A DNA stretch of 64,000 nucleotides. Source: Candidatus Uhrbacteria bacterium RIFOXYB12_FULL_58_10 (GTDB taxonomy: Bacteria > Patescibacteriota > Patescibacteriia > UBA9934 > GWF2-40-263). Positions 6,128 to 23,550 of the stretch are shown here, piece by piece. Below the pieces are notes generated by a model that saw nothing but the letters and a program-made list of their open reading frames with translations, did no database searches and was not told the DNA's origin. The first letter of the stretch is position 1. Each line of letters starts with the position of its first letter. The stretch covers positions 80,828 to 144,827 of the forward strand of contig CALRBH010000001.1 in NCBI GenBank assembly GCA_943354165.1, read 5' to 3'. The position numbers were made by a program, and so were the translations under genes.

Positions 6128-6528
6128 GGGGCTGATCGGCTTCGCCGGCAGCCTGTTTCCGTCTAAGCAAGCCGAGGGTGTACTGAACCTCGTAAATCCT
6201 CTGTGCAAAGAAGTCATTTGCCAACCTCTTCTCACAAGTGAAGAGCGCGATCGCTTCGGCGTTCCGCGTTCCGACACTTGCCATGGTTACCGCCTAAGGG
6301 CTTGTAACCCATCCGTCCTGCTGGTTCGTAAGCGGGGTCGCGGGTGTTATATCTACGGACTCTCCTTGATGGACTACCGGTCTTCAGCAAGGGAATTGGC
6401 GGCCGGTCCGTCTGCAGGTATTTCGTTCTGTTTGACCCTGCAGCCGCGTAAATCTAACAGAACTTCGCTTGGAGAAAGGATTGGGGACAGTTGACCAGAC
6501 GGGGGTTCGATTCCCCCCAGCTCCACCA
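6128..6528 (+). ncRNA. ssrA: tmRNA
   Basis: 5' GGGGCTG pairs with 3' CAGCTCC-ACCA (G3.U alanine identity); T-arm GGGGGTTCGATTCCCCC; tag frame 6220-6297; directly after smpB. Confidence 0.95.
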
Positions 6529-8059: not shown

Positions 8060-8764
8060 ATGTCACGAGTTGAAAAAAACGCTCCCGTACAAGATGAGCT
8101 GCGCGCCATGCGCGGAGAGATGCTTGAAACTGTGAAAGTGAGTGGACGCGGGGTGGGGAAGAAGACGGGTTGCGCGATCATTCTCCTTCTTGTGCTGATG
8201 GCGTTTGGTCTTTGGATCCTGGTTCTTTTCGCTCGCACAGGACTCATAACGATTCCAGGTATTTCTCCAATCGTATTTACGGCTCCGGCTCCTGACCATC
8301 AGGTTGCCCCGGGGATCCTGATGGAAGAGAGCATTTCGCAGCAGTTGTCACAGGCCTCCACTTCGACAGCTATCGCGCTGCGCATGTCCGAGGAGTCACT
8401 TACCGCCTCCGTACGCCGAGTGCTGGCGGGATCGAACGTGAATTTCATCGATGCCGAAAAGACGCAGGTCATTGTGGAGACAGACGGTATCGAGATCTTC
8501 ATTCCCGTTGAAGGGAAGGATACGGCGGTCATGGTGCGTTTGCTTCCAGAGATCGAGAACGGTGCGTTTACGCTTTCGATCCGGGGCGTCGATGTCGGGA
8601 CGCTTGCTCTGCCGGGGGTGATTGTGGACTCCATGCTGCGTCCGGCCTTCGATGCGTCGGTGGACGAATTCAATCGAGAACTTGCCAAGCACGTTCTTCT
8701 TGAACAGATCCGTCTCGAGTCAGGCTCCCTTAGTATTTCAGGAACGCGATTCATTCCGCAGTAA
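8060..8764 (+). CDS. hypothetical membrane-anchored protein
   Basis: N-proximal TM, beta-rich C-terminal part, operon context. Confidence 0.75.
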   Translation: MSRVEKNAPVQDELRAMRGEMLETVKVSGRGVGKKTGCAIILLLVLMAFGLWILVLFARTGLITIPGISPIVFTAPAPDHQVAPGILMEESISQQLSQASTSTAIALRMSEESLTASVRRVLAGSNVNFIDAEKTQVIVETDGIEIFIPVEGKDTAVMVRLLPEIENGAFTLSIRGVDVGTLALPGVIVDSMLRPAFDASVDEFNRELAKHVLLEQIRLESGSLSISGTRFIPQ

Positions 8765-8767
8765 TAC

Positions 8768-9532
8768 ATGGTCATCATCCACCGAGCCACTCCGTTTGCG
8801 ATAGGGCTTGTGACCGCGCTGCTTTTTACCGCGGTGCTGTTGGGTTGGCTTCCGGTGGCTATCGGATTTCCATTGCTTCTTCTTCTGCCGTTCTTGCTGT
8901 TCTCGCGTTTATGCCAGTGGAGCGGGCGTACGTTTCAATTTTGGTATTTCGTGGGGACGCCCGTCGTGTTCCTCCTCTCCTCCATCGGATTCCTCCTGCT
9001 GCTTGAAGACTCCGTGAGCCGGTGGGCGCTTGCTGGGCTTGCGGCCTCGCTTCTATTTGTCTTTGGTGAATTGGTTTTCGTTTACTTACACCTGCCAGCT
9101 TCCTATCAGCCGTATTCCATCGAACATCTTTCCCTGCCGATGAACATCCTCTCGGTTTTTTTTCTTTCTGCGACGTTTTTCGGGACGAACCTGTTTTTGC
9201 AGCTCCCGCTCCCGCTCCTCTCCATCGCCTTCGCATTAGTGGTAATGTTCCTGGTGTTCGGGACGCTGTGGGTAAGTAAGGTGTCATTCACACAGGCGAT
9301 GCCCTATGCGCTTGCCGGCACCTTGCTCGCCACTCAGCTGTTCGCCGTGCTTACGTACCTGCCGACAGGGTATTATACGAATGCGGCGCTTCTCGCCTTA
9401 TACTTTTACCTCTTTTTAGGATGCACACGCGCCCAATCGCTCGCCCGGCTTTCCAAAGATGTGGTTAAGAGATATGTCATCTTCGGGGCGCTGCTCGGAG
9501 CGGTGATCTTAGGGAGCGCGCGCTGGATTTAA
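8768..9532 (+). CDS. hypothetical multi-pass membrane protein
   Basis: About 8 hydrophobic segments; 3-nt gap to upstream gene. Confidence 0.8.
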   Translation: MVIIHRATPFAIGLVTALLFTAVLLGWLPVAIGFPLLLLLPFLLFSRLCQWSGRTFQFWYFVGTPVVFLLSSIGFLLLLEDSVSRWALAGLAASLLFVFGELVFVYLHLPASYQPYSIEHLSLPMNILSVFFLSATFFGTNLFLQLPLPLLSIAFALVVMFLVFGTLWVSKVSFTQAMPYALAGTLLATQLFAVLTYLPTGYYTNAALLALYFYLFLGCTRAQSLARLSKDVVKRYVIFGALLGAVILGSARWI

Positions 9533-9539
9533 CCTTCAT

Positions 9540-10574
9540 ATGTCTACATCGTTTCGACCTCCCATCTCCTGGTTGCTGCTCTGTCTGTTCATTGGGGCCG
9601 CAAGTGGAATCACCGGCGTTTCCATCGCGGTGTATTCTTTTTCCAAGTATGCGCAAACCTTGGAGGAACTTTCTCTTCCGTTGCGGTTAGGGGATGAACG
9701 CCCGGCTCCCGTGACGGTGTCGAAAACGATCGACGCGCTCATGAGTTCGGTCTCCGGATCCGTTGTGCCGCTTTTTGTCTCTGATCGTGCGATGGACCGC
9801 GCGGATTCGGCGGTGGCTTCAGGTGTCGCCCTCACAAGTGATGGGTGGGTGCTGACGTCCGGGAGCGTGGAGGTGAGCCGCGGAAGGGCGTTCATAAAAA
9901 ATACCTCCTATGCCGTGGACCGCGTGGTGCGCGACCCGGCAACCGGATCGGCTTTTATTCATATTGCCGCCGATGGACTTCCGGTGGCGACATTCGGATC
10001 CGGCACTTCGCTGTCTCCTGGATCAGACGTCTATCTCGTTCCCGTGAGCGATCATCTTGTTCGCCGCACCTTGGTGGCCGTGGATCCTGGGGAGGCTTAC
10101 GATCACTCGTGGGACGTCTCCCAGAAACGATTAGTGTTAGATGCCGCCGCAAATGTTCCGCCTGGGACTCCCGTGTTTGATGCGGCAGGGAAGCTGGTCG
10201 GCATCATGGCGGATGCTGTTCGCGCGGTTCCGATCGACACGATTCTTCCCGCCCTCTCTTCCTTGCTTAAAGACGGATCAATTCACCGCATCGTTCTTGG
10301 GGTAAGTGGCACGGATCTTTCTCGGGCGGCGCCTGCAAGCGGATCTTCCGCACGTGCTGGCCTCAAGGTGAGCGCCGTACGGCCAGGTTCAGTCGCGGCT
10401 ATCGCTGGCGTGCGGGCAGGGGACATTATTCTTGAGGTCGATGGGGAGGCGGTTGGACGCCGTACGCTCGACGAGCTCATTCTAGGATTCGCCCCAGGGG
10501 CACGCGTGCCCGTTTCCGTTGAACGCCCAGACGGTTCCGTCGCGGATCTCGAGATGATCCTCACGGACAAATAA
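9540..10574 (+). CDS. HtrA-like trypsin-PDZ protein with degenerate catalytic motifs
   Basis: ASGVALTSDGWVLT, GTPVFDAAGKLVGI, PDZ segment PGSVAAIAGVRAGDIILEVDG. Confidence 0.85.
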   Translation: MSTSFRPPISWLLLCLFIGAASGITGVSIAVYSFSKYAQTLEELSLPLRLGDERPAPVTVSKTIDALMSSVSGSVVPLFVSDRAMDRADSAVASGVALTSDGWVLTSGSVEVSRGRAFIKNTSYAVDRVVRDPATGSAFIHIAADGLPVATFGSGTSLSPGSDVYLVPVSDHLVRRTLVAVDPGEAYDHSWDVSQKRLVLDAAANVPPGTPVFDAAGKLVGIMADAVRAVPIDTILPALSSLLKDGSIHRIVLGVSGTDLSRAAPASGSSARAGLKVSAVRPGSVAAIAGVRAGDIILEVDGEAVGRRTLDELILGFAPGARVPVSVERPDGSVADLEMILTDK

Positions 10575-10590
10575 GGTATACTGCCCCCAT

Positions 10591-11232
10591 ATGTCACAGC
10601 CTTCGTACGGAGTCGTGCTTGCGAACCGATGGAAATCGCTCGCGGCGTTTACTCTCCTCGGTCTCGTTCTCTCCTTGCTGGTTTCGTTTATCCAGCCGCT
10701 CAAGTATTCCTCGACCGTTCGGCTTCTGGTACGTCAGGACATCGGTTCCTCAGATGCCTACACAGCCAGTCGGAGTGAGGAACGCATCGCGGAAAACCTT
10801 ACGAACATTCTTTATACCACCACGTTTTTTGACGATGTCTTGAACGCCGGGTTCACCATCGATGAACGGACGTTTCCGGCCGAGGATTACAAGCGACGCA
10901 AGGAATGGGGAAGGACGGTTTCCGCCACGGTGGCGCGCGGATCCGGCCTCATGACCGTCGTGGCCTATCATCCGGATGTGAAGCAGGCCGAGCAGATTGC
11001 CCGCGCCGTGGCGTTTGTCTTCACTCAGAAGGCCAAGGACTACACCAGTGCGGCCGGGGTGGACGTGCGGTTGATCGATGCGCCGTTGAATTCCAATTGG
11101 CCGGTGAAGCCTAATTTGCTCGCAAATGGTTTGTCCGGTCTGGTCCTGGGCGGTCTGTTTGGGGTGGCCTACCTGCTATTGCAGGCAGAGCGGATTCGCC
11201 GCCGCCATCAATTGGTTCACGAGGAATTTTAA
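10591..11232 (+). CDS. Wzz/YveK-like polysaccharide co-polymerase
   Basis: N-terminal TM followed by PLKYSSTVRLLV; C-terminal PVKPN and Gly-rich TM. Confidence 0.85.
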   Translation: MSQPSYGVVLANRWKSLAAFTLLGLVLSLLVSFIQPLKYSSTVRLLVRQDIGSSDAYTASRSEERIAENLTNILYTTTFFDDVLNAGFTIDERTFPAEDYKRRKEWGRTVSATVARGSGLMTVVAYHPDVKQAEQIARAVAFVFTQKAKDYTSAAGVDVRLIDAPLNSNWPVKPNLLANGLSGLVLGGLFGVAYLLLQAERIRRRHQLVHEEF

Positions 11233-11308
11233 AAACCCTATTCCGTTAGAGAACGGTCTGATATCATAGCGCGCGTCCCATCCCGGGACGCGCGTTTTTG
11301 GAGGAATC

Positions 11309-11890
11309 ATGCAGCTGATCAATGTGTATCTAGCGATGCTGCTCGCGGCGGCTCCGGTCGCAGCGCAGTACACAGAACTCGCTCCGTTTCTTGGAGTGGG
11401 GACAAGTTTCGTCAGCGTCCCGTTTGAGACTCAGATTGGTGCGCCGGAATGGCAGACAGGTGAAAGGAGCTTTACCGGAGGTGTTACTTTTTCTACCGGA
11501 ATTGATCACACCTTTGGACGACTCGGAGTTCATCTTGATTTCGGACCGCGCGCTACGTTCTTTCCAGAAGAAGGGATGATGATGGGGGTTTTGGTCACCG
11601 GCTGCGTGGACGCGCTTTTCCGTCCGACCCACCATCTGCTGATCGGTCCATCCTTCTGTGTCGAAACCCACGAACCGCTTTGGTACGGTGGGGAAGCGCA
11701 ACGTACGATTTATGGAATGGGCGGGGTTGGGCTGGTCGTTCCGTTCCTGTTGGGCGATGAGACCGAACTGGCTCCTCACGTCTTTCTCGGTATTGCGCCC
11801 GTCTCAGGCGAAGATTCGATGCGTCTTGTTCCGTCCGTTCTGTTAGGGATAGATCTGGAGGTCTTGTTTTCACCGGCATTCCATCCGTAA
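11309..11890 (+). CDS. secreted hypothetical protein, beta-barrel-like
   Basis: GGAGGA SD (11300-11305); signal peptide ending PVAA; amphipathic Gly/aromatic-rich strands. Confidence 0.7.
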   Translation: MQLINVYLAMLLAAAPVAAQYTELAPFLGVGTSFVSVPFETQIGAPEWQTGERSFTGGVTFSTGIDHTFGRLGVHLDFGPRATFFPEEGMMMGVLVTGCVDALFRPTHHLLIGPSFCVETHEPLWYGGEAQRTIYGMGGVGLVVPFLLGDETELAPHVFLGIAPVSGEDSMRLVPSVLLGIDLEVLFSPAFHP

Positions 11891-11950
11891 GGCAAAGGCA
11901 ACCGTTGGAGGTCGTAGACCGCTCTTGGGGCGGTTTTATTCTATCTATAA

Positions 11951-12044
11951 GCAAAAAATCCACTGGGGCGGCTTGGCCTGGCAAGTCAGAGCGAGGAGGA
12001 GACGCCATGACCGCTGTACCAAGCCGACTCAACGGACTTTTGAT
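11951..12044 (-). ncRNA. candidate small RNA hairpin with UCUCCUCCU loop
   Basis: Minus-strand TTGACC(12079-12074)-17-TAGGGT promoter; long stem whose G.U pairs form only on the minus strand; ends in U6. Confidence 0.5.
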
Positions 12045-12103
12045 GTGCGAACCCTATCAACCTGGCTGTGCGGGGTCAAGAAATTCGTGGCTGTCATGGG
12101 GGA

Positions 12104-12132
12104 TTGACAAAACGGCCAGTTTCTGTTATATT
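12104..12132 (+). promoter_or_regulatory. sigma70-type promoter
   Basis: TTGACA-17 bp-TATATT with extended TG. Confidence 0.8.
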
Positions 12133-12445
12133 GCCGGGTCGATCGATCACTCAAATAGCCAATACATCACGCCAAACCGCGCGATTTCAGGCGGTTCGGC
12201 AGAGCACATAGCATCTCCTCCTTGCTATGGGCGCTGTCGGACCACTCGAGTTCACGCGGCCAGCGCGCAGACGCCCTTATCCACAGGGACCCTGCGCGCT
12301 GGTCACGTTGGACCCAATGGTCCTTACAAACGTGTCCTTACAGAGTACCAGCCGTAGGAAGAACGAGCCCAAGGCATTCCGCCAAAAAGCTCACCCTCTT
12401 CCGCGCGCTGTGCCGGAAGGAGAACAAATGCAACAGGAGAGTCCC

Positions 12446-13540
12446 ATGAAAACGAGCATCGTTTCCGTGTTCATCATCACTATGATCGGCTTCGCCTTCC
12501 CGGCCTTTGCGGACGTCTCGTCCACGGATGCCGGCGTCGCCGCGGCACCGGTCCTGTTCGATGAGATCCCCGACATGTGCCTCGCTGACTGCACGCAGGC
12601 CTATCAAACGGCCAACGACGCGTGCCTCAAGCAGTTCAACAACTGCGTGACCGAAGAGCAGGTCCGCGTGGACCCGCCCAAGGTCACTCCCGAGAAGTCC
12701 AAGAAGCCCAAGGCTCCGGAGGCCCCCAAGGCCTCGAAGCAAAAGGTGGAGAACTTCCGGGAGGCGCTCAAGGAACTCGAAAAGCGCACGGAGGACGGGT
12801 TCACCTCCAATGACGAGAAGCTCAAGAAGGTCAAAGAGACCATCAAGCTTCTCGACGATCGCGTCGGCAAGGTCGAAGACCGTGTCGGCAAGGTCGAAGA
12901 GGTCATCAAGAATCTTGTAGGTCGAGCCGACAAGGTCGGCGTCATGGGAATTATTGGGTTCGAAGCCTGCCTGGGCTCCACCCGCCAGGTGGACCTCACC
13001 GATCTGCGGCAGATCGATCAGAATGGGAATAACGTCGGCAACGACGGCACGCTCAAACTGCAAGATCCGGGCGCGGCATGCGTTCGTCCTGTGCTCGGGT
13101 TCGGTCTCCAAAACAAATACATGGTGCTGAAGATCTCGGGCAGCCCGTTTGGCGTCACCTTTGGCTCCGCGCAGGCGTCCAATGGAGATCCCTCGCAGGT
13201 CATCGGCTACGCTCCCAGCGTCGCCGGCGAGTTCCTGGGCTTCGTGACTCCCGACCTCGCGCTTGGAGTGTACGGCCAGTACATGTTCAACAAGGTTGGT
13301 GCACTGCCCAGTGGGAAAGCCTCGCTGGACGCGCAGACCTTCACAGGCGGCCTCGCGGCGGACTGGACCTTCCTGCGATTCGGATCGACGGCGCTCGCGC
13401 TCTCGGCTCGCGTCGGCGGCGGGTACGGTCATCTGTCGACTCGGCTCCCGACCGGCAAGGACAAGTGGTGGCCCGCGCTCGCGCTCGACGGCCAAGCCGG
13501 TGTGACCATGCGGTTCAACCCCTTCCAGGCCGCGGAATGA
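12446..13540 (+). CDS. secreted protein: Cys motif, coiled coil, C-terminal beta-barrel-like domain
   Basis: AGGAGA SD (alternative in-frame ATG at 12428 also has an SD); signal peptide ending PAFA; DRVGKVE tandem; amphipathic strands ending GVTMRFNPF. Confidence 0.8.
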   Translation: MKTSIVSVFIITMIGFAFPAFADVSSTDAGVAAAPVLFDEIPDMCLADCTQAYQTANDACLKQFNNCVTEEQVRVDPPKVTPEKSKKPKAPEAPKASKQKVENFREALKELEKRTEDGFTSNDEKLKKVKETIKLLDDRVGKVEDRVGKVEEVIKNLVGRADKVGVMGIIGFEACLGSTRQVDLTDLRQIDQNGNNVGNDGTLKLQDPGAACVRPVLGFGLQNKYMVLKISGSPFGVTFGSAQASNGDPSQVIGYAPSVAGEFLGFVTPDLALGVYGQYMFNKVGALPSGKASLDAQTFTGGLAADWTFLRFGSTALALSARVGGGYGHLSTRLPTGKDKWWPALALDGQAGVTMRFNPFQAAE

Positions 13541-13557
13541 AGTAGGACACGACTACG

Positions 13558-13601
13558 GTGTGGGGAGGGAGCAGGATTTAATCCTGTCTCTCTCCCCACA
13601 T
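13558..13601. terminator. long hairpin after the 12446 gene
   Basis: GTGTGGGGAGGGAG CAGGATT / AATCCTG TCTCTCTCCCCACAT; no clear U-tract. Confidence 0.5.
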
Positions 13602-13731
13602 TCTCTCTCTAAAGCCAGATACGTATGCGGACGAATTTTTCGCCCGCAGACGACCCCGGCTTTCCCGCCTCGTAGGAGGCAAGCCATCCGCCTCTCAAGA
13701 GGCTTGTCAGCAACCCCAGCAGGAGACAGAC

Positions 13732-14760
13732 ATGAACAACGTCAGCAAGTTCCTTTTCATCGCGGCCCTCGTGGCCATCACCTTCAACACGGTCGGCTGC
13801 GAGCCGGCCCAGGCGTCTGGCGCAAACGTCGTCGTGGACGGCGCCGCTGAATGCGAGAACAACGTCGATTGCACTGGCGATGAGGTCTGCACCGACGCAA
13901 CGTGCGTCGATCCCGACACCATCGAGTGCCGTCTCAACAGCGACTGCAACGACGACGACAAGGTCTGCACCGACGCGAAGTGCGTCGACAAGGACCCCCC
14001 GTCCAACGTCGGCTGCACGAACAACGACGGCTGCGAGTTCGACGAGGTGTGCACCAACGGCACCTGCGAAGAGCTCGATTGTGAAGTTGACGAGTGCGCG
14101 GCGGACCACGAGTGCGTGGACCTCCCGCCGGTCAGCGACTGCACGCTCAACAGCGCGTGCGGCGACGCCCAGCAGTGCACCAACGGCCAGTGCGTCAACA
14201 CGTCTTGTCCCTCGGGTCAGCACGCGGTGAACCACAATGAGTGCGTGAACGACACGCCCTCCGGCCAATGCACGCTGAACTCGCAATGCAGCAACGGCCA
14301 GGTGTGCACGAACGGTCAGTGCGTCGGCGGCAACCCGGTCAATCCCGGACCCACGCGCACGGAGCGGTTGTGCCAGAACGCCCCCTCGGGCAAGACGGTG
14401 AACGGTGACCTTACGGGTCGTTCGTTCGCCACCGACGGTGTCACGCTCTTGCAGAGCTCGTTCGCGAACGTCGCAGTGAATGCGGCGCGAACGCAGATCT
14501 GCGGTGACATCACGGTCCAGACCGGCGGGTTCCTTGAACACAACGTCACGTTCATCCCCACCGGCTTCACGGGATACGTGGCGTTCAACCAGAACTCGCA
14601 GAGCTGCCAGATCACGGCGGGTGCGTCATCGGCTCTCGGTGCGCGCTCCTTGTCCCCGGTCGCGATCCCGTGGCACTGTTCCGGACTGGGCTCGTGCAGC
14701 AACGCTGTGCCCGCAAGCAACGAAGGTTGCGATGCGCGCAGCAGCGTCCCGGCTCCTTAG
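13732..14760 (+). CDS. Cys-rich repeat lipoprotein (myxobacteria-like)
   Basis: AGGAGA SD; lipobox TVG-C; repeated C-x4-[D/A/Q]C-x4-C-x4-C modules. Confidence 0.85.
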   Translation: MNNVSKFLFIAALVAITFNTVGCEPAQASGANVVVDGAAECENNVDCTGDEVCTDATCVDPDTIECRLNSDCNDDDKVCTDAKCVDKDPPSNVGCTNNDGCEFDEVCTNGTCEELDCEVDECAADHECVDLPPVSDCTLNSACGDAQQCTNGQCVNTSCPSGQHAVNHNECVNDTPSGQCTLNSQCSNGQVCTNGQCVGGNPVNPGPTRTERLCQNAPSGKTVNGDLTGRSFATDGVTLLQSSFANVAVNAARTQICGDITVQTGGFLEHNVTFIPTGFTGYVAFNQNSQSCQITAGASSALGARSLSPVAIPWHCSGLGSCSNAVPASNEGCDARSSVPAP

Positions 14761-14776
14761 CTGGAAGTACGATACT

Positions 14777-14814
14777 AACCCCCATCACATCTGTGAGTGG
14801 GGGTTTCGTCTTTT
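14777..14814 (+). terminator. intrinsic terminator
   Basis: AACCCCCATCACA-TC-TGTGAGTGGGGGTT, then TCGTCTTTT. Confidence 0.65.
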
Positions 14815-14981
14815 CTGGAGCCGCATGTTCGATTGACAAAAGTCCTTTTTCTTGGTAGAAAAGAACGTTAGTATTTCACTAAGGATCGCGCGCTGATGTG
14901 GGTAGGGAATCCACACCAGGTCACGATCTTTAAACCCATACTTGTATCCTGCCGATCTGGGGCAGGGTACGGAGGTGATCC

Positions 14982-15758
14982 ATGCCGCGTTGGTTAAAAG
15001 CCTTGTTGCTGTCGTGTGTTCCGTTTGCCAAGTCCTGCAGCCTGCTCCTGCCCGCGACCGGATGCTCGCTCTGTGCCGTAGCATCCCAATGCTATGACGA
15101 CGTCGATTGCTCTCCGGGATCTGTGTGCGAGGAGGGGGCCTGTATTTCGAGCGGGACTACCATCGACGAGCCCGATGCCGGACCTGATCCTGGTGAAGGT
15201 GAAGGCGAGGGAGAGGGCGAAGGCGAGGGTGAAGGAGAGGGAGAAGGAGAAGGTGAGGGTGAAGGAGAACCTGATGAGGATGGGGATGGAAATCCCAATT
15301 CTACGGACCCTGCGGTGTTGCGTGATACGAATGCCAACACCAGACCAGATACTCTGTGTATCCTTTCGAGCCAGGTGATGCCGGAGCCGTGGGCAAATGA
15401 TGACGTGTTCCTTCAAATCCAGGGAGGCAGCTTCAATGATTTCGACACCATGACGCTTGGTGCAGAGATCCAAATTGAGCAGTTTGGCCCTGGACTTGGT
15501 TGGTGTCCGGACCTGAGTGGGTTCCCAGATGGAGATTATTTTATCCGGTTCGTGGCTGTTGAGGGGATCGATCAGACTTCTCTGCAGAGCGGATATGTGT
15601 GTTCCAGGGCTGTCATCAGCGACTTTGATGCGGCCTGTACTGGGGCAAATCCCGACCTTCTTTGCGGGTTCCTCTCGCGACAGGATAACTGCGGTGGATT
15701 CGTGGGAAATCTTATTCACGTAACCGTCACTGCAGCCTTTGGGGTGGAACCTGGCTAG
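14982..15758 (+). CDS. secreted Cys-containing protein with (Gly-Glu)n linker
   Basis: GGAGGTGA SD (14971-14978); upstream TTGACA at 14833; CYDDVDCSPGSVCEEGAC module; about 13 GE dipeptides. Confidence 0.8.
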   Translation: MPRWLKALLLSCVPFAKSCSLLLPATGCSLCAVASQCYDDVDCSPGSVCEEGACISSGTTIDEPDAGPDPGEGEGEGEGEGEGEGEGEGEGEGEGEPDEDGDGNPNSTDPAVLRDTNANTRPDTLCILSSQVMPEPWANDDVFLQIQGGSFNDFDTMTLGAEIQIEQFGPGLGWCPDLSGFPDGDYFIRFVAVEGIDQTSLQSGYVCSRAVISDFDAACTGANPDLLCGFLSRQDNCGGFVGNLIHVTVTAAFGVEPG

Positions 15759-15978
15759 ACAGCACGTTTCTCTAAGCGAGCCTTGACAATATCGGTAAAA
15801 TCCGGTAGAAATCAAGGTCCGTATTTTTCTTTATACCGTCCAATTTCGTGCTTTGTCTTCGGCATAGGAGGGTCGTGGACTGGGACATGAAACTTTCACA
15901 AGCGTGCTCGTACACGCATCCCCGTCCGCTACCAGTAGCGAGGAGACCAACCATGAAGCAGAGAAAGAGGAGGAGACC

Positions 15979-18330
15979 ATGAGAAGTTTGTTTTTGCTGG
16001 TTTTGTTTGCCATGATGCCCGCCTGCGTCGGCTGCGACGACGGGGATGGCATTCCCACCGAGGACGACTGCGATCCGGAGACGTCGGGTGACAATCAGGT
16101 CATCTCACTCTGCGGATGTCCGGACAACCCTGCCAGCCCTCCGGGCTGTGCGGATAATTCGGGCGAAGGCGAAGGTGAGGGCGACGGTGAAGAAGGCGAA
16201 GGCGAAGGTGAGCCGCTGCAGGAGTGTGTGCTCAACACCGAATGCGACGACGGCGAAGAGTGCACCGATGGAGAGTGCATCCAGATTCCTGTGGAGCCAG
16301 TGTGTACGCCCGGCGAACGCCGGGTATGCAATACGGGTCTCGACGGCGTCTGCATCTTCGGCAGCCAGCGATGCAAGGAGGATGGATCGGACTTCGACAC
16401 ATGCGAAGTCGAGACGTCTCCTGGCGAGCTCGATGAAGTCTGTTTTGATGGCATCGACCAGGACTGCGACGGTCGCATCGACAATGGATGCGCCTGTCCG
16501 GCTGGAGAAGAAGCTGACTGTGTCCTCCCTGCGCTCGACGGCGAATGTCGCCGCGGACGTATGGTGTGCCTACCGGACGGCTCCGAGTTCGGCGAGTGCG
16601 AGCAGGTCACCTTCTTTCAAGAAGAGATCTGCTTAAACGGGTTTGATGAGACGTGCGATGGCACAGCCGACGAAAACTGCGTGTGCTTCCCTGGGCAAAC
16701 CCAGCCGTGCAATTCAGGGTTTGAAGGCGTGTGTGCCGCGGGCGTCCAAACGTGTTTGCCGGATGGTCTGGGGTTTGACTCCTGCCAACCGCTGATCGCG
16801 CCGTTTACGGAACCTGAGACTTGCGAGAACGGGGTCGATGAGGACTGCGACGGTCGTCCGGATTCCGGATGTACCTGTTCGCCTGATGAACGGGCCCTCT
16901 GTGTCGTAGTGAGCGAGGTCGGACCGTGTTCTGTTGGAGAGGCAGTATGTCTTCCCGACGGAAACGGCTTCGGCGCCTGCGTCCAGACGGTACTGCCCGC
17001 CGCAACGGATTCCTGCTTCAACCTGCGGGATGACGACTGCGACGGCACGGTGAACAACGGCTGCGCGTGTGAGGCAGGAACCAGCATCGTCTGCGACACA
17101 GCCCTCGAAGGGATCTGTGCCTCGGGCCTGCAAACCTGTCTTGCGGACGGCTCCGGGTTCGACATCTGTCGTCCCGTGATCCTTCCGTTCGCACAAGCTG
17201 ATACCTGTGGCAACGGCGTCGACGAGGACTGCGACGGGCTCCCGGACAACGGGTGCACCTGCGATCCCGGTGATCAAGTCGACTGCGTTGTGACGGGGCT
17301 CGAGGGCGCATGCAAGATCGGGAAGGCGACCTGTCCTTCTGACGGCAACGCGTTCGGTGCCTGTACACAGACGGTCTTCCCGGCGGCGCAGGATACCTGC
17401 ATCAATGGGATCGACGACGACTGCGATGCGGCGACGGATGAAACGTGCGTCTGCCAGCCGTTCACGTCCCGTCCTTGCGCCACTGGCTTGCCAGGGGTCT
17501 GCAATGGCGGAAGCGAAACGTGCCGCGCCGACGGAACTGGATTCAACGTGTGTCAGGTGCTCATCATTCCCGGAACCCAGGCGGAAACCTGTGGCAACGG
17601 GCTGGATGATAACTGCAACACGGCGGTTGATGACGGGTGCGTAGTGGGTGCGGGCGTCCCTGGGACGCTGGCCTTTGATGACGATGGTGACTGCGAGTGT
17701 GAGATCGTCGCAGGCATCTGCTCGGGGTCTATCAACCCCGTGTGCACGGCGGTTACGGCAGATGACTGCGATGACGCTGCGAGAGTCAAAAGCTCGCTCG
17801 CCAACGAAGTCTGCGGTGGTACGGAGGACTTCGACTGCGATGGCTCGATCGGTGCCGCCGATCCGGACAGCGTGGCGCAGTGTGTAGGAACAATCAGCGT
17901 GAGTTTCGCGGCAGGGAACTTCACAGCCGTGATGAACGGCAATGTGACGGGAACAACCTTGAGCGAGATGACGACAGGCGCGGCTACGCTTCTTGGAAAC
18001 GTTCTGTTCCTTGAAGTCGGTGCCAACTCCGCCGGCTGCAGCTTTGATGCGACGAGTTCGTGTGGGCAAGTGGCCTTCGATCCCCTCACGGATAACTTCG
18101 TCAACAAGGCTCTGGTGTTCGCTGGAGCGATCGGTATTCCGACAGACTTCACTCCGCGGGTGCAGACGAACCAGACGGTGGTGACTCCAGGTACAGGAGT
18201 CGTGGTGCCTGAAGGAGCGTTCATTGATCTCGCCCGTTGGGGGGTGATCAATGGAGCAGGAGGCAAAACCTGTGCCGTATTGCCCGGTGGTCCACTGGGT
18301 GCGGCTCTGACCACACACTGCACGCCGTAG
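15979..18330 (+). CDS. large Cys/Asp-rich repeat lipoprotein (MopE-like metal-binding DxDCDG repeats)
   Basis: AGGAGGAGA SD; signal ending PACVG-C; GE linker; about 7 repeats of ~64 aa containing C.NG.D.DCDG..D.GC. Confidence 0.9.
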   Translation: MRSLFLLVLFAMMPACVGCDDGDGIPTEDDCDPETSGDNQVISLCGCPDNPASPPGCADNSGEGEGEGDGEEGEGEGEPLQECVLNTECDDGEECTDGECIQIPVEPVCTPGERRVCNTGLDGVCIFGSQRCKEDGSDFDTCEVETSPGELDEVCFDGIDQDCDGRIDNGCACPAGEEADCVLPALDGECRRGRMVCLPDGSEFGECEQVTFFQEEICLNGFDETCDGTADENCVCFPGQTQPCNSGFEGVCAAGVQTCLPDGLGFDSCQPLIAPFTEPETCENGVDEDCDGRPDSGCTCSPDERALCVVVSEVGPCSVGEAVCLPDGNGFGACVQTVLPAATDSCFNLRDDDCDGTVNNGCACEAGTSIVCDTALEGICASGLQTCLADGSGFDICRPVILPFAQADTCGNGVDEDCDGLPDNGCTCDPGDQVDCVVTGLEGACKIGKATCPSDGNAFGACTQTVFPAAQDTCINGIDDDCDAATDETCVCQPFTSRPCATGLPGVCNGGSETCRADGTGFNVCQVLIIPGTQAETCGNGLDDNCNTAVDDGCVVGAGVPGTLAFDDDGDCECEIVAGICSGSINPVCTAVTADDCDDAARVKSSLANEVCGGTEDFDCDGSIGAADPDSVAQCVGTISVSFAAGNFTAVMNGNVTGTTLSEMTTGAATLLGNVLFLEVGANSAGCSFDATSSCGQVAFDPLTDNFVNKALVFAGAIGIPTDFTPRVQTNQTVVTPGTGVVVPEGAFIDLARWGVINGAGGKTCAVLPGGPLGAALTTHCTP

Positions 18331-18433
18331 TGGTGCAGTTGGGATGATGTCCTAGTTACTTCTGCCGGCGGCCGCGATCTCCTCTCTGAGGAATCGCGAC
18401 CGTCGGTCTTTTATTTGGTACACTATGAGCGTT

Positions 18434-19975
18434 ATGTTGGACCTGCAGGCGATGTATGGCCTTACGGAGGAGCGGTCAAAGGGATTGATGGTGGTGCTCG
18501 CCATCTCGTTTGTTGTTCTCATCGGCTCCATGTCGTTTCTTTCGCCGGTAGCGGTGGTGGCCGGGGTGATTGGCGTTCTGCTGCTCGCTCTCACGATTGT
18601 GCGACCGCTCTGGACGCTGAGCCTACTCGCCCTCTACCTTCCGTTCGAGCCGTTTCTGCTCAAGTTTGCGCCGGACGAAGTGTATACGTTTGCCCGGTTC
18701 GGTTCCGAAGGACTCATCTATATTCTTGGGGGGCTCGTGATCGCGCGTATCCTCATGGGGCGTACGTCGAACGTTCAGACGCCTATCAGTCTTCCGTTCG
18801 TCCTGTTCTGCGTTGTTCTCGGCGCGTCCGCGCTTATCAATGCCGTGCCTCCGAGCATCGCCGTACTCGGCATCAGACAGATCATCAGGTTCATCCTGGT
18901 ATTCTTTATCGTCGTACAGCTCGCGCCGTCCAAGTCTTACATTTCAAAACTGACGATCGCACTGTTTGGGATTGCGGCGTTCGAAAGTTTGCTGGCGTTC
19001 GCCCAGCTCGTCATTGGTGCGCCGCTCGACACATTCCTCCTGCCGTCGGACACGCGCGCGATCGGCGACGTTGCCGTTACGGCCGGGACGACCCAGTTCT
19101 GGGACCCGGGCTCGCGCACGTTCGGGACGCTCGGTCGGTATGATCGGCTCGGAAACTTTCTGTTCATGATGCTGTTGTTCGGCGTCGGCTTCCTCACGCA
19201 GCAGGGGAAGCGCGCGATCTCTTTGTCCCGTAATCAACTTCTTTGGCTGTTCGCCCTCGGGTTACCTGCGCTCCTCATGACGTTCTCGCGCGCATCTTGG
19301 TTCGCCTTTCTCTTCGGCTTCCTTTTCATCATGGTGGTGCTGCTGCGCGATAAACGCGTGATGGCGGCGTTCGGGATTTGTGGGGTCCTTGCGGGAGCGT
19401 ACGTGGGATTGTCCGGGCTTAATGTACGGTTCATTACGGAAGCGCCGGGGCAGACCCTCATCGAGCGGTTTTACGAAACGTTCAGCTATGCGCGATGGCG
19501 CGGGGAATATTACGGACTCGGCCGCGTGTTTTGGTTCGTGCAAACCGTGTCAGTTGTCGTCCCCGCTGCGCCGATCTTTGGCTGGGGGCCTGGGCAGTAC
19601 GGGGCAGGGGCCGCGACCACGCTCGTGAATACGCGCGTGTATGACGCGCTCGGCTTGCCGTTCGGGGTCTATGGAACCGATGGGTATATCGATAACAACT
19701 GGTTCTCCTTATGGGGGGAAGCCGGAACGCTCGGACTCGCGTTTTTCCTCTGGATGTACATCGGACTATTTGTGTACGTATGGCGAGGATATCGCCGGAG
19801 TTCCGATGGGTTCACACGCGGGTTGTGCGCGGGGTATCTCGCCCTGCAAATCGGCGTCGCGTTCGCGGCGTTCCTTGCGACATCGTTCGAGACAAGAACG
19901 GTCGGGTACTACTTGTGGATGTATGCCGGGTTCCTCGTGGTGCTGCTTGAGCGTGAACGTCGTACGCCCGTATGA
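18434..19975 (+). CDS. O-antigen ligase/Wzy_C family membrane protein
   Basis: RTFGTLG, LMTFSRASW, PIFGWGPG, IDNNW.SLWGEAGTLG; start is 18425 or 18434. Confidence 0.85.
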   Translation: MLDLQAMYGLTEERSKGLMVVLAISFVVLIGSMSFLSPVAVVAGVIGVLLLALTIVRPLWTLSLLALYLPFEPFLLKFAPDEVYTFARFGSEGLIYILGGLVIARILMGRTSNVQTPISLPFVLFCVVLGASALINAVPPSIAVLGIRQIIRFILVFFIVVQLAPSKSYISKLTIALFGIAAFESLLAFAQLVIGAPLDTFLLPSDTRAIGDVAVTAGTTQFWDPGSRTFGTLGRYDRLGNFLFMMLLFGVGFLTQQGKRAISLSRNQLLWLFALGLPALLMTFSRASWFAFLFGFLFIMVVLLRDKRVMAAFGICGVLAGAYVGLSGLNVRFITEAPGQTLIERFYETFSYARWRGEYYGLGRVFWFVQTVSVVVPAAPIFGWGPGQYGAGAATTLVNTRVYDALGLPFGVYGTDGYIDNNWFSLWGEAGTLGLAFFLWMYIGLFVYVWRGYRRSSDGFTRGLCAGYLALQIGVAFAAFLATSFETRTVGYYLWMYAGFLVVLLERERRTPV

Positions 19976-21198
19976 CCGTCCTTCAAGCGCATAAATTTTA
20001 TTTTCCACGCGGCGGGGCGGAGACGTATCTCTTCGCGCTGTCCGAATATTTAGCGTCGCGCGGGTCAACGGTCGTTCCGTTCGCGATGCAACATCCGGGG
20101 AATCGGCAAACTCCATATTCGCACTATTTCCCTCGGTTCGTTCCTACGGAAAAAGTGAAGATGTCGCCGGCGGGATTGCGTACCGTAGGCCGGATGTTTT
20201 ATAGCTTCGAATCTAAGCGCCAGATGGAGCGATTGTTACGGGACGTCCCCATCGACGTCGCCCATATCCATAATCTGTACACGCAGCTGTCCCCATCGAT
20301 CCTTACTCCGCTCCGGAAGAGAAAGATTCCGACGGTGATGACGGTGCATGATTATCACCTGGTGACTCCGCACTATGCACTTCCGCTTGCCGGGCAGGCC
20401 GTGGACGTTTCTCGTGTGGGAGCATTGCGCGCGGCGCAGACGAAGTTTCATAAGGACTCAATGGCCGCAAGTTTTCTGCAAGCCGCATCTTATCGATTCA
20501 CCCGCCGCTGGAGATTTTATGATCGTGCCATTTCGCTCTTCATCGCTCCGAGTGAATTCATGGCGGCAAAACTGCGCGCGTCCGGATATGACAAGGATCG
20601 CATTCGCGTAATCCATTACGGCATCGACACGCGGACGATCGAACCTCGGTTCGGACACGATGGATATTTTCTGTTCGTCGGAAGGCTCTCGGAAGAGAAG
20701 GGGGTCGATACGGTGCTTGAGCTTGCGCATCGACTTCCGGATCTAAAGTTTAAGATTGTCGGGACCGGGCCAGATGAGGCGTTATTGCACTCCGTTGGCG
20801 ATCGACTTCCGAACGTCGAGTTCATGGGATACCAGCAAGGCCAGCGGTTGCGGGATCTGTACCTTGGTGCCCGGGCGGTATTAGTGCCTTCCAGGTGGGA
20901 GGAGCCTTCCGGTCTGGTTTTGCTTGAGGCCCAGGCCTGTGGAAAACCTGTGATTGCGAGCCATGCCGGTGGCATCCCGGAGGCCATGGAAGACCGCAGG
21001 AGCGGGTTTCTGGTCCCACCGCTTGATATCCACGCCTGGACCGAGGCCGTGCTGCGCCTCGCCTATGACGACCGGTCACGCGAAAAGATGGGCAGGGACG
21101 CCAGAACCCTTATGGAAGACCGGTTTTCGCTCAGGGCCCATTACGAGGCTGTGGAGCATGTTTATGCTGAGGCAATACGATTAGGGGGTAGTGCGTAG
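19972..21198 (+). CDS. glycosyltransferase family 4
   Basis: GGAE, FVGRLSEEKG, PSRWEEPSGLVLLEA..GKPVIAS..GGIPE. Confidence 0.93.
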   Translation: MTVLQAHKFYFPRGGAETYLFALSEYLASRGSTVVPFAMQHPGNRQTPYSHYFPRFVPTEKVKMSPAGLRTVGRMFYSFESKRQMERLLRDVPIDVAHIHNLYTQLSPSILTPLRKRKIPTVMTVHDYHLVTPHYALPLAGQAVDVSRVGALRAAQTKFHKDSMAASFLQAASYRFTRRWRFYDRAISLFIAPSEFMAAKLRASGYDKDRIRVIHYGIDTRTIEPRFGHDGYFLFVGRLSEEKGVDTVLELAHRLPDLKFKIVGTGPDEALLHSVGDRLPNVEFMGYQQGQRLRDLYLGARAVLVPSRWEEPSGLVLLEAQACGKPVIASHAGGIPEAMEDRRSGFLVPPLDIHAWTEAVLRLAYDDRSREKMGRDARTLMEDRFSLRAHYEAVEHVYAEAIRLGGSA

Positions 21199-21215
21199 TG
21201 TGTAGGGGGTAGGAA
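21181..21215 (+). repeat. G-rich heptamer half-array overlapping a stop codon
   Basis: TTAGGGG GTAGTGC GTAGTGT GTAGGGG GTAGGAA. Confidence 0.75.
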
Positions 21216-21290
21216 AAAAGGGCTCTATTTAGCTAAATAACTGTTGAAATGGCTTGACAAAAAGCCATTTTTTTGCTATTCTGCGCAGTT

Positions 21291-22463
21291 ATGAAAATCG
21301 CCATGATCGGATCAAAGGGGATTCCCGCCGCCTCCGGAGGAGTGGAGCGGCACGTGGAAGAGCTCTCAACGGAGCTCGTAAAGCTGGGACATGATGTCCT
21401 GGTGTATTCTCGTGCTTGGTATACGGGCGTAAACAAGCCTCGTTTTTCGCATCGCGGGGTGACCTGCGTTTCCGTTCCGTCATTGCGTACGAAGCACTTC
21501 GATTCCATTACTCATACGTTTGCCTCCATTGTGGCAGCGGCTCGTGAAGGGGTGGACGTGTTCCATATCCACGGCGTCGGTCCCGCTTTGCTTTCTTGGC
21601 TTCCTAAGCTGTTGCTTCCGTCCGCCAAGGTGGTTGTGACCTTCCATTGCATTGATCGCCATCATGAGAAATGGGGATGGATTGCCCGCTTCATGCTCCG
21701 CACCGGCGAATGGGCCGCAGTCCGTTTTCCGGACGCGACCATCGCGGTTGCAAAGTCTCTTCAGGATTACTTGCGCCTCACCTATGCCACCCACACCATG
21801 CATGTGCCTAACGGTACCCGCATGCCGGAGGGGGAAGGGGACGCGACCAAGCTCTCAAAGTTTGGACTTGAAAAGGGAAAGTATCTGATGTTCTGCGCCC
21901 GCCTCGTCCGTCACAAGGGGGCCCATGTTCTCGTGGAAGCCTGGAAGCTTCTTTGTAAGGAGCGTCCGGACCTCACGGACGGAATGAAGCTTGCGATTGT
22001 CGGAGGCTCGGCGTTTACGGACGGGTATGTCCGCGAACTCACGGAGCTTGCGAAGGGCGATGAGTCCATCGTTCTCACTGGTGCCCAGCATGGCGAGGAC
22101 CTGCATGCGCTCTTCAGCCATGCGTACGCCTTCGCCCATCCATCGTCTTCTGAAGGGTTGCCGATCTCGGTCCTCGAAGCGATGTCCTACGGCAAGTGCG
22201 TGGTCGCCGCAGACATTCCGGAATCGCGCGAAGTCGTGGAAGGCCACGGTCTCACCTTCAAGGTGGGGAACGTGGAAGACCTTGCCCGCAAACTCGCGAT
22301 GGTGATTGAAAGCCCGGACCTCGCCGCCTCCGTCGGGTATGACGCCCGCGACTTCGTGGCGCGACAGTACGACTGGGACAACATTGCCGAGACCACCAGC
22401 TACCTGTATGAGGCGCTCCAGTTCGAGCCTCGCGTACAGGTCCGGCCAGTTGCCGGGCGATAG
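21291..22463 (+). CDS. glycosyltransferase family 4
   Basis: MKIAMIG.KGIP..GGVERHV, ARLVRHKG, EGLPISVLEAMSYG; promoter TTGACA(21254)-17-TATTCT. Confidence 0.93.
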   Translation: MKIAMIGSKGIPAASGGVERHVEELSTELVKLGHDVLVYSRAWYTGVNKPRFSHRGVTCVSVPSLRTKHFDSITHTFASIVAAAREGVDVFHIHGVGPALLSWLPKLLLPSAKVVVTFHCIDRHHEKWGWIARFMLRTGEWAAVRFPDATIAVAKSLQDYLRLTYATHTMHVPNGTRMPEGEGDATKLSKFGLEKGKYLMFCARLVRHKGAHVLVEAWKLLCKERPDLTDGMKLAIVGGSAFTDGYVRELTELAKGDESIVLTGAQHGEDLHALFSHAYAFAHPSSSEGLPISVLEAMSYGKCVVAADIPESREVVEGHGLTFKVGNVEDLARKLAMVIESPDLAASVGYDARDFVARQYDWDNIAETTSYLYEALQFEPRVQVRPVAGR

Positions 22464-22466
22464 CCG

Positions 22467-22497
22467 AAAACACCCCCGCAGTTGCGGGGGTGTTTTA
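22467..22497. terminator. bidirectional terminator between convergent genes
   Basis: AAAACACCCCCGCA-GT-TGCGGGGGTGTTTT. Confidence 0.85.
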
Positions 22498-22504
22498 CGT
22501 GGTA

Positions 22505-22816
22505 TTATGTCGGCTGCATCCCCGTATCAGGAGGAGGTTCGATGTTGATGGATTTGGGGTTTGGGGAGAACAGTTTGTTCTTGATCTTCCATTGATCTAC
22601 GTACTGACCGATGCCACCTTTGTCCCGCTTATTGCGCACCGTGGTGGTGTGCTGGGACCACTTGAGAAGTGACTCGAAATTGATCTTGTAGCGCCCCTGG
22701 ACCACCACATAGCTCACCGCCCCATCGGTAATGGCCCGGCGTACCGTGCGCTGGGAAATCCCAAACAAACGGGCGGCTTCGGACACGGAAAGGCGGATGA
22801 GGGGGTTGAGAGACAT
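22505..22816 (-). CDS. excisionase-like helix-turn-helix protein
   Basis: LSVSEAARLFGISQRTVRRAI..G...VVVQGRYKI. Confidence 0.85.
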   Translation of the reverse strand: MSLNPLIRLSVSEAARLFGISQRTVRRAITDGAVSYVVVQGRYKINFESLLKWSQHTTTVRNKRDKGGIGQYVDQWKIKNKLFSPNPKSINIEPPPDTGMQPT

Positions 22817-22829
22817 AGGGTCTTTGTGG

Positions 22830-22874
22830 GGCTGTAAAGGCAGTAAGGGCTGTAAAGGCGGTAAGGGGATGAGG
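22830..22874 (-). repeat. nonamer tandem array in the 5' leader of the HTH gene
   Basis: Plus strand GGCTGTAAA GGCAGTAAG GGCTGTAAA GGCGGTAAG GGGATGAGG. Confidence 0.85.
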
Positions 22875-23003
22875 TTGTTTGGATACACCAGTGTAGCCAA
22901 ACAGAAGGACTTTCGTCAATCAAGGCTTGATAAAAATCACGATTTCGGCTAAGGTTAGCCATCGCTAAATATACATGTAAGACTTTGTCTTTTTCTGCAT
23001 CAT

Positions 23004-23546
23004 GTGTCGAAGCAACTAGATCAATTCCTTATTTCTCGGATCCGGGCGTTCCGCGACGAAAGCGCGTTCGAACGGATCATGGCAGATCATCATAAAGCTT
23101 TGCTTCGATTCCTTGAGTTTCGTCTGCCCTCTAAAGCCGATGCAGATGATGCCCTTTCCATCACCATGTTACGGACGTGGAACTATCTCACATCCGGGAC
23201 GCATGTAGAGCACTTGCCAGGACTCATTTATACCATTGCGCGTTCTGTGGTTGCAGAGTTCTACCGCTCGCGTCGATCAACGGTGTCTACTGATCTCTTG
23301 GAAGAAAGCGGAGTGATCATTCCGGATACGCAGCACACAAAGGGTGCCATGGAGGCACGAGTGGATGTTCAGTTCCTCGAAGAGAAGCTCAAAGAGCTTT
23401 CCGAAGAAGATCGAGATCTGATCGTGATGAAACACTTCGAACAATTGAGCACTCAAGAAATTGCGGACCGACTAGAAAAATCTGTAACAGCCACAAGCGT
23501 TGCCCTCCACCGCGCGTTAAAGAAACTCAGGGGGCTTATCGAATAG
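23004..23546 (+). CDS. ECF RNA polymerase sigma factor
   Basis: DESAFERI, ADADDA, LIYTIAR; region 4 LSEEDRDLIVMK..LSTQEIA..LHRALKKLR. Confidence 0.92.
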   Translation: MSKQLDQFLISRIRAFRDESAFERIMADHHKALLRFLEFRLPSKADADDALSITMLRTWNYLTSGTHVEHLPGLIYTIARSVVAEFYRSRRSTVSTDLLEESGVIIPDTQHTKGAMEARVDVQFLEEKLKELSEEDRDLIVMKHFEQLSTQEIADRLEKSVTATSVALHRALKKLRGLIE

Positions 23547-23550
23547 AGAT

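Follow-up and report, generated by a model that had tools for sequence, protein, structure and literature searches.

The C-rich-loop small RNAs (sRNAs) of the Firmicutes, RsaE/RoxS and LhrC among them, expose C/U-rich motifs that pair with G-rich ribosome binding sites (RBSs). Their motifs, CCCC or UCCC, are located in several loops or linkers, and their folds are family-specific. In the Alphaproteobacteria, the cuckoo or alpha-r14 sRNAs (CcsR1-4/RSs0680, SmelC397, and NfeR1) present CCUCCUCCC in the loops of hairpins whose stems vary strongly, and in reporter assays the anti-Shine-Dalgarno (anti-SD) seeds of NfeR1 silence targets at the RBS (PMC4615179, PMC10746234). The cuckoo RNAs consist of two to four adjacent hairpins of 24-50 nucleotides (nt) each, and UCCC loops are ascribed to RNAIII (PMC4615179). 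The present article concerns two hairpin RNAs, here called A and B, that are predicted in a 64,000-nt stretch of the genome of Candidatus Uhrbacteria bacterium RIFOXYB12_FULL_58_10 (the window; C1:80828-144827 of an 852.5-kb, 98%-complete genome in 24 contigs). The explanation favored here, to which we give about an even chance, is that A and B are paralogues and belong to a conserved, so far undescribed family of hairpin RNAs in the Candidate Phyla Radiation (CPR), likely mimics of the 16S rRNA tail whose CUCCUCCU loop would pair with Shine-Dalgarno (SD) sites and block ribosome binding.

The literature searched contained no description of this RNA family. To our knowledge, no regulatory RNA is known from the CPR, a point on which our literature search was limited in reach. 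Rfam 15 likewise gave no match: at the gathering threshold the whole window yielded only transfer-messenger RNA (tmRNA) and one tRNA, and at E up to 10 the region 11850-12500 yielded only four chance-level rows for microRNAs and small nucleolar RNAs.

By analogy, the cuckoo/alpha-r14 sRNAs appear to be the closest functional analogues of A and B. Both groups have an ultraconserved anti-SD-like loop on stems that are free to change by compensatory mutation, and both occur as neighboring paralogous copies. Cuckoo CCUCCUCCC and the A/B sequence N-CUCCUCCU-Y have a 7-nt core, CUCCUCC, in common, the first A/B base being U, C, or A. Unlike the cuckoo RNAs, A and B each consist of one rod-like hairpin of ~90 nt with a single loop, in place of several adjacent hairpins; their host belongs to the Patescibacteria and rarely uses SD sites; one of the two copies is embedded in an mRNA leader; and no curated covariance model of Rfam 15 matches either of them above chance level at E up to 10. 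Since architecture, phylum, and model match all differ, A and B would work like a cuckoo RNA but are not members of that family. Silencing of the cuckoo type at the RBS is, for A and B, expressed only in predicted duplexes with neighboring RBSs (-8.6 to -15.9 kcal/mol). In comparison with RsaE/RoxS, LhrC, and RNAIII, the A/B loop is the longer CUCCUCCU, which covers two SD registers; there is neither an Rfam match to RsaE/RoxS nor a CCCC run in the loop. The sequence N-CUCCUCCU-Y also differs from the anti-SD-like loops NCCCCCUCC and CCCUCCU.

RNA A, a Conserved Hairpin RNA on the Minus Strand

The hairpin pair sits in a 555-nt spacer between an envelope operon and a group of surface-protein genes (Table 1). 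Back-to-back promoters, two hairpins, a U6 tract, and identical 9-nt loops had been noted here in an initial annotation of the window, and all are present in the sequence as described. The predicted A transcript extends from ~12044 to 11953 and ends in U6 (U-run 11958-11953). Minus-strand positions 12050-11940 fold with a minimum free energy of -43.8 kcal/mol (z = -4.27), as low as which none of 200 shuffles came. The structure is a single hairpin of ~90 nt and 32 pairs without a branch point, and its conserved non-helical elements are a 3x3 internal loop, RCA/CAG, plus GCGGUC...GAC.

When the spacer was compared by BLAST with 60 relatives, matches were confined to the two hairpin regions. Of 36 genomes from different genera of the family, 16 contained the A region, with an identity of 77-84%. 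In an alignment of 12 A sequences the outer stems are conserved, the inner stems covary freely, and the loop is invariant; RNAalifold assigned 33 pairs to this alignment, 16 of them with compensatory changes. A covariance model built from A relatives (R1) found one strong A copy per genome in 56 of 73 family genomes and, across the order, detected A in 108 of 151 genomes (99 of the 129 of good quality) and in 46 of 55 genera. A larger, model-fitted alignment of 39 A-type sequences has 95.4% of its cells paired, with 26 of 32 pairs changing on both sides; no shuffle out of 500 reached such pairing, and slid controls gave 38-48%. Fitting an alignment to a model favors structure, and the independent MAFFT/RNAalifold analysis agrees with the result. 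The strand of the RNA is also indicated by these data. There are 163 G-U cells against 22 A-C cells, and pairing is 95.4% in the sense and 84.1% in the antisense direction, so that the transcribed strand of A is the minus strand of the window.

A sequence of the form TTGACn-17-TGnTAnnnT precedes A at a similar distance in most of 50 homologous loci inspected by eye, other families included; in most of these loci the promoter ends 7-12 nt ahead of the hairpin, and a U-run follows it. A therefore has the general attributes of an sRNA gene, namely its own promoter, an intrinsic terminator, covarying structure, and an intergenic position. As judged from sequence, it is a self-contained, conserved RNA gene comprising a sigma-70-type promoter, a rod hairpin of ~90 nt, and a U-run terminator.

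RNA B, a Paralogous Hairpin in an mRNA Leader

The initial annotation had regarded the stems of the two hairpins as unrelated. Model R1, which was built without any B sequence, nevertheless matches 12176-12260 on the plus strand with 32.7 bits (E ~5e-7). Because a model made from A alone matches B, their stems are not unrelated, and A and B are paralogues. The tip of B reads CAUAGCA-UCUCCUCCU-UGCUAUG (12207-12229). Of 30 family loci, 20 have a second hairpin copy at a distance of 110-215 nt from A, divergent in 14, as here, and tandem in 6; in five loci of other families it is tandem and downstream of A. An alignment of 32 B-type sequences contains 28 pairs, 26 of which show compensatory changes. 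Pairing extends to 93.8% of its cells, against 38-42% in slid controls, and none of 500 shuffles came as high. Folding, stem covariation, and loop conservation had been proposed as checks in the initial annotation, and both hairpins show stable folds, covarying stems, and a conserved loop across relatives. In the DNA sequencing runs X2 and X3, near-identical short contigs span both hairpins.

The two copies differ in how they are predicted to be expressed. The promoter of B is the only promoter-like site that a scan reported in 11000-13500, and in related loci B is likewise preceded by a similar promoter and by a 5' start of conserved, CGUUCA-like sequence. The leader (12138-12460) folds with -127.1 kcal/mol (z = -6.6), and a terminator scan found no terminator-like site on the plus strand between 12260 and 12446. 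By these predictions B is a leader element of an mRNA, lacking a terminator of its own, and not an independent terminated transcript. The proposal of two sRNA transcripts thus stands for A, with its conserved promoter and terminator, and has to be given up for B. Within the leader, a hairpin at 12395-12425 (CCCUCUUCCG...CGGAAGGAG) can sequester the SD of ATG 12428, and the SD of ATG 12446 is open in the predicted fold.

In related loci, the open reading frame (ORF) after B starts 100-290 nt downstream, and a GGAG-type motif together with a hydrophobic N-terminus is present in 17 of 19 such loci. The protein sequence of this gene is not conserved, and no match to either of the flanking proteins, P0001 and P0002, was found by tblastn in the related loci. 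A further model, R2, found B-like hairpins with U-runs in 13 additional genomes that belong to the class but not to the order (16 of 151 in total); as these distant hairpins end in U-runs, they would be free-standing sRNAs. Beyond the class, the same model had no matches in ~144 genomes of the phylum.

The Invariant Loop and the 16S rRNA Tail

The feature that unites A and B is their loop. Its CUCCUCCU part is identical in all 39 A-type sequences, in which only the first loop position varies (U in 21, C in 12, and A in 6), and CUCCUCC is invariant in the 32 B-type sequences. The 16S rRNA of the same genome has the 3' tail GGAUCACCUCCUUUA, from which it follows that CCUCCU is common to loop and tail. 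The suggestion in the initial annotation that these are structured RNAs with a loop resembling the 16S anti-SD is in agreement with this conservation. At the DNA level, TCTCCTCCT occurs three times in the window, at 11994-12002 (-), 12214-12222 (+), and 15968-15976 (-); the mean for shuffles of the window is 0.47, and only one shuffle in 100 attained three. The last of these occurrences is the loop complement that the annotation had pointed out, and it belongs to the GAGGAGGAGAC that precedes ATG 15979. The genome holds 16 occurrences in its 852.5 kb, and strongly closed loops are formed only by the A and B copies. A third copy with flanking pairs (4) was seen at G000:C6:31289 (minus complement 31290); neither R1 nor R2 matches it.

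The SD-Led Gene Cluster

Upstream motifs in the cluster read, in order, GGAGGA, AAGGAGA, AGGAGA, AGGAGA, GGAGGTGATC, and GAGGAGGAGAC. All five real genes that flank the RNAs carry an SD, and the operon genes at 8060-10591 and 18425-23551 carry none. The SD motifs listed in the initial annotation ahead of 12428, 12446, 13732, and 15953 are indeed AGGAGA or GGAGG. The AGGAGGAG core of GAGGAGGAGAC ends 3 nt before ATG 15979, whose product is a Cys-rich lipoprotein of 783 amino acids (aa), and the duplex of GAGGAGGAGAC with the 9-nt loop has a predicted energy of -15.9 kcal/mol. This value is the strongest of the range predicted for loop-RBS duplexes of the cluster genes, which begins at -8.6 kcal/mol, whereas six of seven flanking operon genes gave +0.2 to -4.8 kcal/mol. 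Also at this position is a nine-codon upstream ORF, MKQRKRRRP (15953-15982), which has its own SD and contains GAGGAGGAGAC in its body; its TGA overlaps ATG 15979, an arrangement that could couple the translation of the two.

Genome-wide, an SD of at least 5 nt precedes ~115 of 798 ORFs, compared with 97 of 798 for the complement control, and among 687 windows of six ORFs, the one at the locus ranks first (5 of 6 SD-led; background 16%). Those five include a spurious ORF that runs across A, and a real SD-led gene is lacking from the count because an ORF was called on the wrong strand; all of these SD tests rest on crude ORF calls and were carried out once the pattern had been noticed. With that qualification, the description of the neighboring genes as an unusual SD-led cluster is borne out. 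SD-led genes for signal-peptide proteins or lipoproteins adjoin the RNA in relatives G017, G003, and G034 as well, and G084 gave an ambiguous picture. Among the loci L087-L094 (G003, G084, G017, and G034), 14 of 23 ORFs flagged as SD-led have a hydrophobic, often lipoprotein-like N-terminus. These upstream sequences and N-termini hint that SD use marks secreted proteins in the clade, which a test in the genome itself did not show.

Proposed Mode of Action and Alternative Explanations

Because the unchanging loop copies the sequence with which the ribosome docks on mRNA, the hairpins would likely silence the neighboring SD-led surface-protein genes. A would act in trans on SD-led mRNAs, its neighbors first, and its best match is GAGGAGGAGAC ahead of the lipoprotein gene. 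B would act in cis on the SD of its own mRNA, or might present an identical loop to the partner of A. Translation would be repressed through SD occlusion, an effect comparable to that described for the cuckoo/alpha-r14 sRNA NfeR1. A broader proposal is that in these SD-poor CPR bacteria the SD site has come to mark the mRNAs of a small regulon of surface proteins, like an address label, and that 16S-tail-mimic RNAs (A in trans, B in cis) switch the SD-dependent translation of secreted proteins and leave the SD-independent bulk untouched; this we put forward tentatively and consider rather unlikely. The family is present in >100 genomes with strong covariation, and it adjoins the only dense SD-led cluster in an otherwise SD-poor genome. 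If the loop does pair with SD sites, a mostly SD-independent organism would regulate chosen mRNAs by competing with the ribosome for the SD, and the mRNAs targeted here would encode surface proteins likely involved in host contact. The locus also provides a simple model system, with one hairpin, one loop, and cis and trans copies side by side.

A number of observations weigh against the favored explanation or limit it. A target search for AGGAGGAG-N3-9-ATG in 73 family genomes uncovered no conserved target: the genes behind the motif in eight sampled places of relatives are mutually unrelated, and the motif is only ~2x as frequent as its reversed control. A 14-mer, AGGAGGAGACCATG, is identical in G000, G001, and G017, but the ORFs that follow it, like those at five further sites sampled, show no relationship to one another. 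The variable first base of the loop does not follow the SD sequence of the neighboring gene. SD calls are noisy, and there is no enrichment of signal peptides among SD-led ORFs of the genome (26 of 115, vs. 178 of 683). The SD cluster was noticed before it was tested, and the cluster test is therefore post hoc. On the side of expression, the minus-strand -10 element TAGGGT is weak, and in this genome the consensus scan did not score the promoter of A above its threshold. A single RNA sequencing run (X9) shared 6% of sampled words of 11300-13300; its reads, placed at 90% and 80% likeness, gave no placement on 11900-12400 and, within the downstream gene, no more than two short pieces of poor likeness, a result that speaks neither for nor against transcription of the hairpins. 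Finally, the absolutely invariant 8-nt loop and the internal loops RCA/CAG and GCGGUC...GAC fit a protein or rRNA partner as well. Taken with the results above, the observation made in the initial annotation is confirmed and its interpretation is partly supported, repression at SD sites being a prediction from the nucleotide sequence.

The fit to another partner is the basis of the alternative that fares best, although we think it rather unlikely. In this explanation, the pyrimidine loop and the internal loops are a docking site for an RNA-binding protein, e.g., one that recognizes the 16S 3' end, which A would titrate and through which B would place the downstream gene under control. Loop conservation in all 39 A-type and, for CUCCUCC, all 32 B-type sequences while every stem pair varies, the conserved non-helical elements, and the failure to find a conserved mRNA target are all as a protein partner would have it. 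One sRNA copy together with one leader copy also resembles titration circuits. However, no candidate protein was identified. Conserved next to the RNAs are genes for envelope proteins, for a PDZ protease, and for a Wzz-like protein, and the loop exactly suits pairing with SD sites, which are concentrated beside the RNAs.

Less probable still is a purely local role, in which A is a bidirectional terminator or insulator after the Wzz-like operon and B folds onto its own SD, neither acting in trans. Most A-type sequences have the form AAAAAG-stem...stem-UUUUUU, which is that of a bidirectional terminator, and since an A-run and a U-run flank A, it should be able to terminate transcription in both directions. 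The position of A is also constant, immediately behind the Wzz-like gene whichever way A is oriented, and B, which has no terminator, lies 100-290 nt upstream of an SD-led start. On the other hand, terminators do not retain 8 unchanging loop nucleotides, internal loops, and a promoter of their own throughout an order; the invariant loop and dedicated promoter of A exceed what a terminator requires. The G-U bias reveals selection on one transcribed strand, the upstream gene already has a terminator at 11916-11936, and distant relatives carry a B-like hairpin as a free-standing element with a U-run.

Two further explanations are very improbable. The initial annotation had itself raised the first, that the motifs are ordinary SDs of small ORFs on the opposite strands (ATG 12007, plus strand, 116 codons; ATG 12209, minus strand, 20 codons), and AGGAGGAGA-N4-ATG does occur opposite both loops with good spacing. 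Yet ATG 12007 is kept in 2 of 12 aligned homologues, the bases that give ATG 12209 are part of a stem that covaries, Pfam has no match to the 116-aa product, and the two ORFs would converge and overlap; as the opposite-strand ATGs are not conserved, the loop motifs are not SDs of small ORFs.

The second is that A is a highly divergent signal recognition particle (SRP) RNA. A resembles bacterial SRP (4.5S) RNA in its size, rod-like hairpin of ~90 nt, wide conservation, and essentially single copy per genome, and this 98%-complete genome has no match to the small or large bacterial SRP RNA of Rfam (RF00169 and RF01854). Unlike SRP RNA, A has a 9-nt loop in place of a GNRA tetraloop, shows no evident SRP-like conserved loop motif, and lacks an Rfam match at E up to 10 in the region, and neither Ffh nor FtsY was detected. 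Searches of the genome gave no matches to PF02978 or PF00448 and no SRP-GTPase motifs, and the best tblastn match to Escherichia coli Ffh had E = 0.11. SRP RNA identity of A was rejected on the grounds of the missing Rfam matches, the 9-nt loop, and the failure to find Ffh.

The distribution of the SRP GTPase was also recorded more widely. PF00448 was above the cut-off in none of 26 genomes of the order, only 7 of 151 genomes of the class had marginal, partial P-loop matches, and none of 101 genomes of the phylum had a match at E <= 1e-10, a search in which 14 of 14 controls matched. This apparent lack is unexpected and may be real or an artefact of the genome collection. Should Ffh and FtsY truly be absent from the phylum, throttled initiation of secreted proteins could compensate for the missing SRP targeting.

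Locus and Genome Setting

The envelope operon upstream of the spacer comprises a DUF5656-like gene, a PDZ/trypsin protease gene, the gene for the 213-aa Wzz-like protein, and that for a secreted protein of 193 aa; downstream follows a series of genes for secreted, Cys-rich surface proteins. The Wzz-like protein adjoining A has 55-73% identity by tblastn in same-family loci across genera and 30-34% in another order. The gene order PDZ protease, Wzz-like gene, RNA(s) is found throughout the family, in other families, and in another order. This synteny across the order indicates that the locus is chromosomal and old, and the SD-led island of the initial annotation is not mobile DNA acting on a host. 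Coordinates of the features are collected in Table 1.

Table 1. Features of the A/B locus, with positions in the window.
Feature	Position	Strand	Basis and remarks
Wzz-like gene, product with two transmembrane segments, 213 aa	10591..11232	+	Matches to Wzz and GNVR in Pfam; conserved synteny anchor on the upstream side of A
SD-led secreted-protein gene cluster, starts 11309, 12428/12446, 13732, 14982, 15979	11309..18330	+	Upstream sequences
Intrinsic terminator of upstream plus-strand gene	11916..11936	+	Terminator scan; just outside RNA A
RNA A, predicted stand-alone rod-like hairpin sRNA, ~90 nt	11953..12042	-	Covariance model, 94.7 bits; covariation; fold z
Apical 9-nt loop of A, UCUCCUCCU	11994..12002	-	Within GGCG-UCUCCUCCU-CGCU
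Predicted promoter of A, TTGACC (12079-12074), 17 nt, (TG)A-TAGGGT (12056-12051)	12051..12079	-	Read from sequence
Predicted promoter of B and leader, TTGACA, 17 nt, (TG)T-TATATT	12104..12132	+	11/12 consensus positions, has TG
Structured 5' leader	12139..12445	+	Carries B, a second hairpin (12260-12303), and an SD-sequestering hairpin (12395-12425)
RNA B, paralogous hairpin in 5' leader, ~85 nt, loop UCUCCUCCU at 12214-12222	12176..12260	+	Model R1
Secreted-protein gene after B, ~364 aa, signal peptide MKTSIVSVF...	12428..13540	+	Translation; SDs AAGGAGA and AGGAGA before ATGs 12428 and 12446
GAGGAGGAGAC, 11-nt complement of A loop and closing pair	15967..15977	+	1 nt (C15978) before ATG 15979

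The sole Rfam matches in the window are the tmRNA gene at 6128-6528 (105 bits) and the tRNA gene at 1537-1611. A was found always directly after the Wzz-like gene, in either orientation: in some genera A and its promoter are inverted with respect to B and to the Wzz-like gene, in others the arrangement is tandem, and at locus L050, which belongs to another family, A is likewise convergent with the Wzz-like gene. The inversion therefore occurred more than once.

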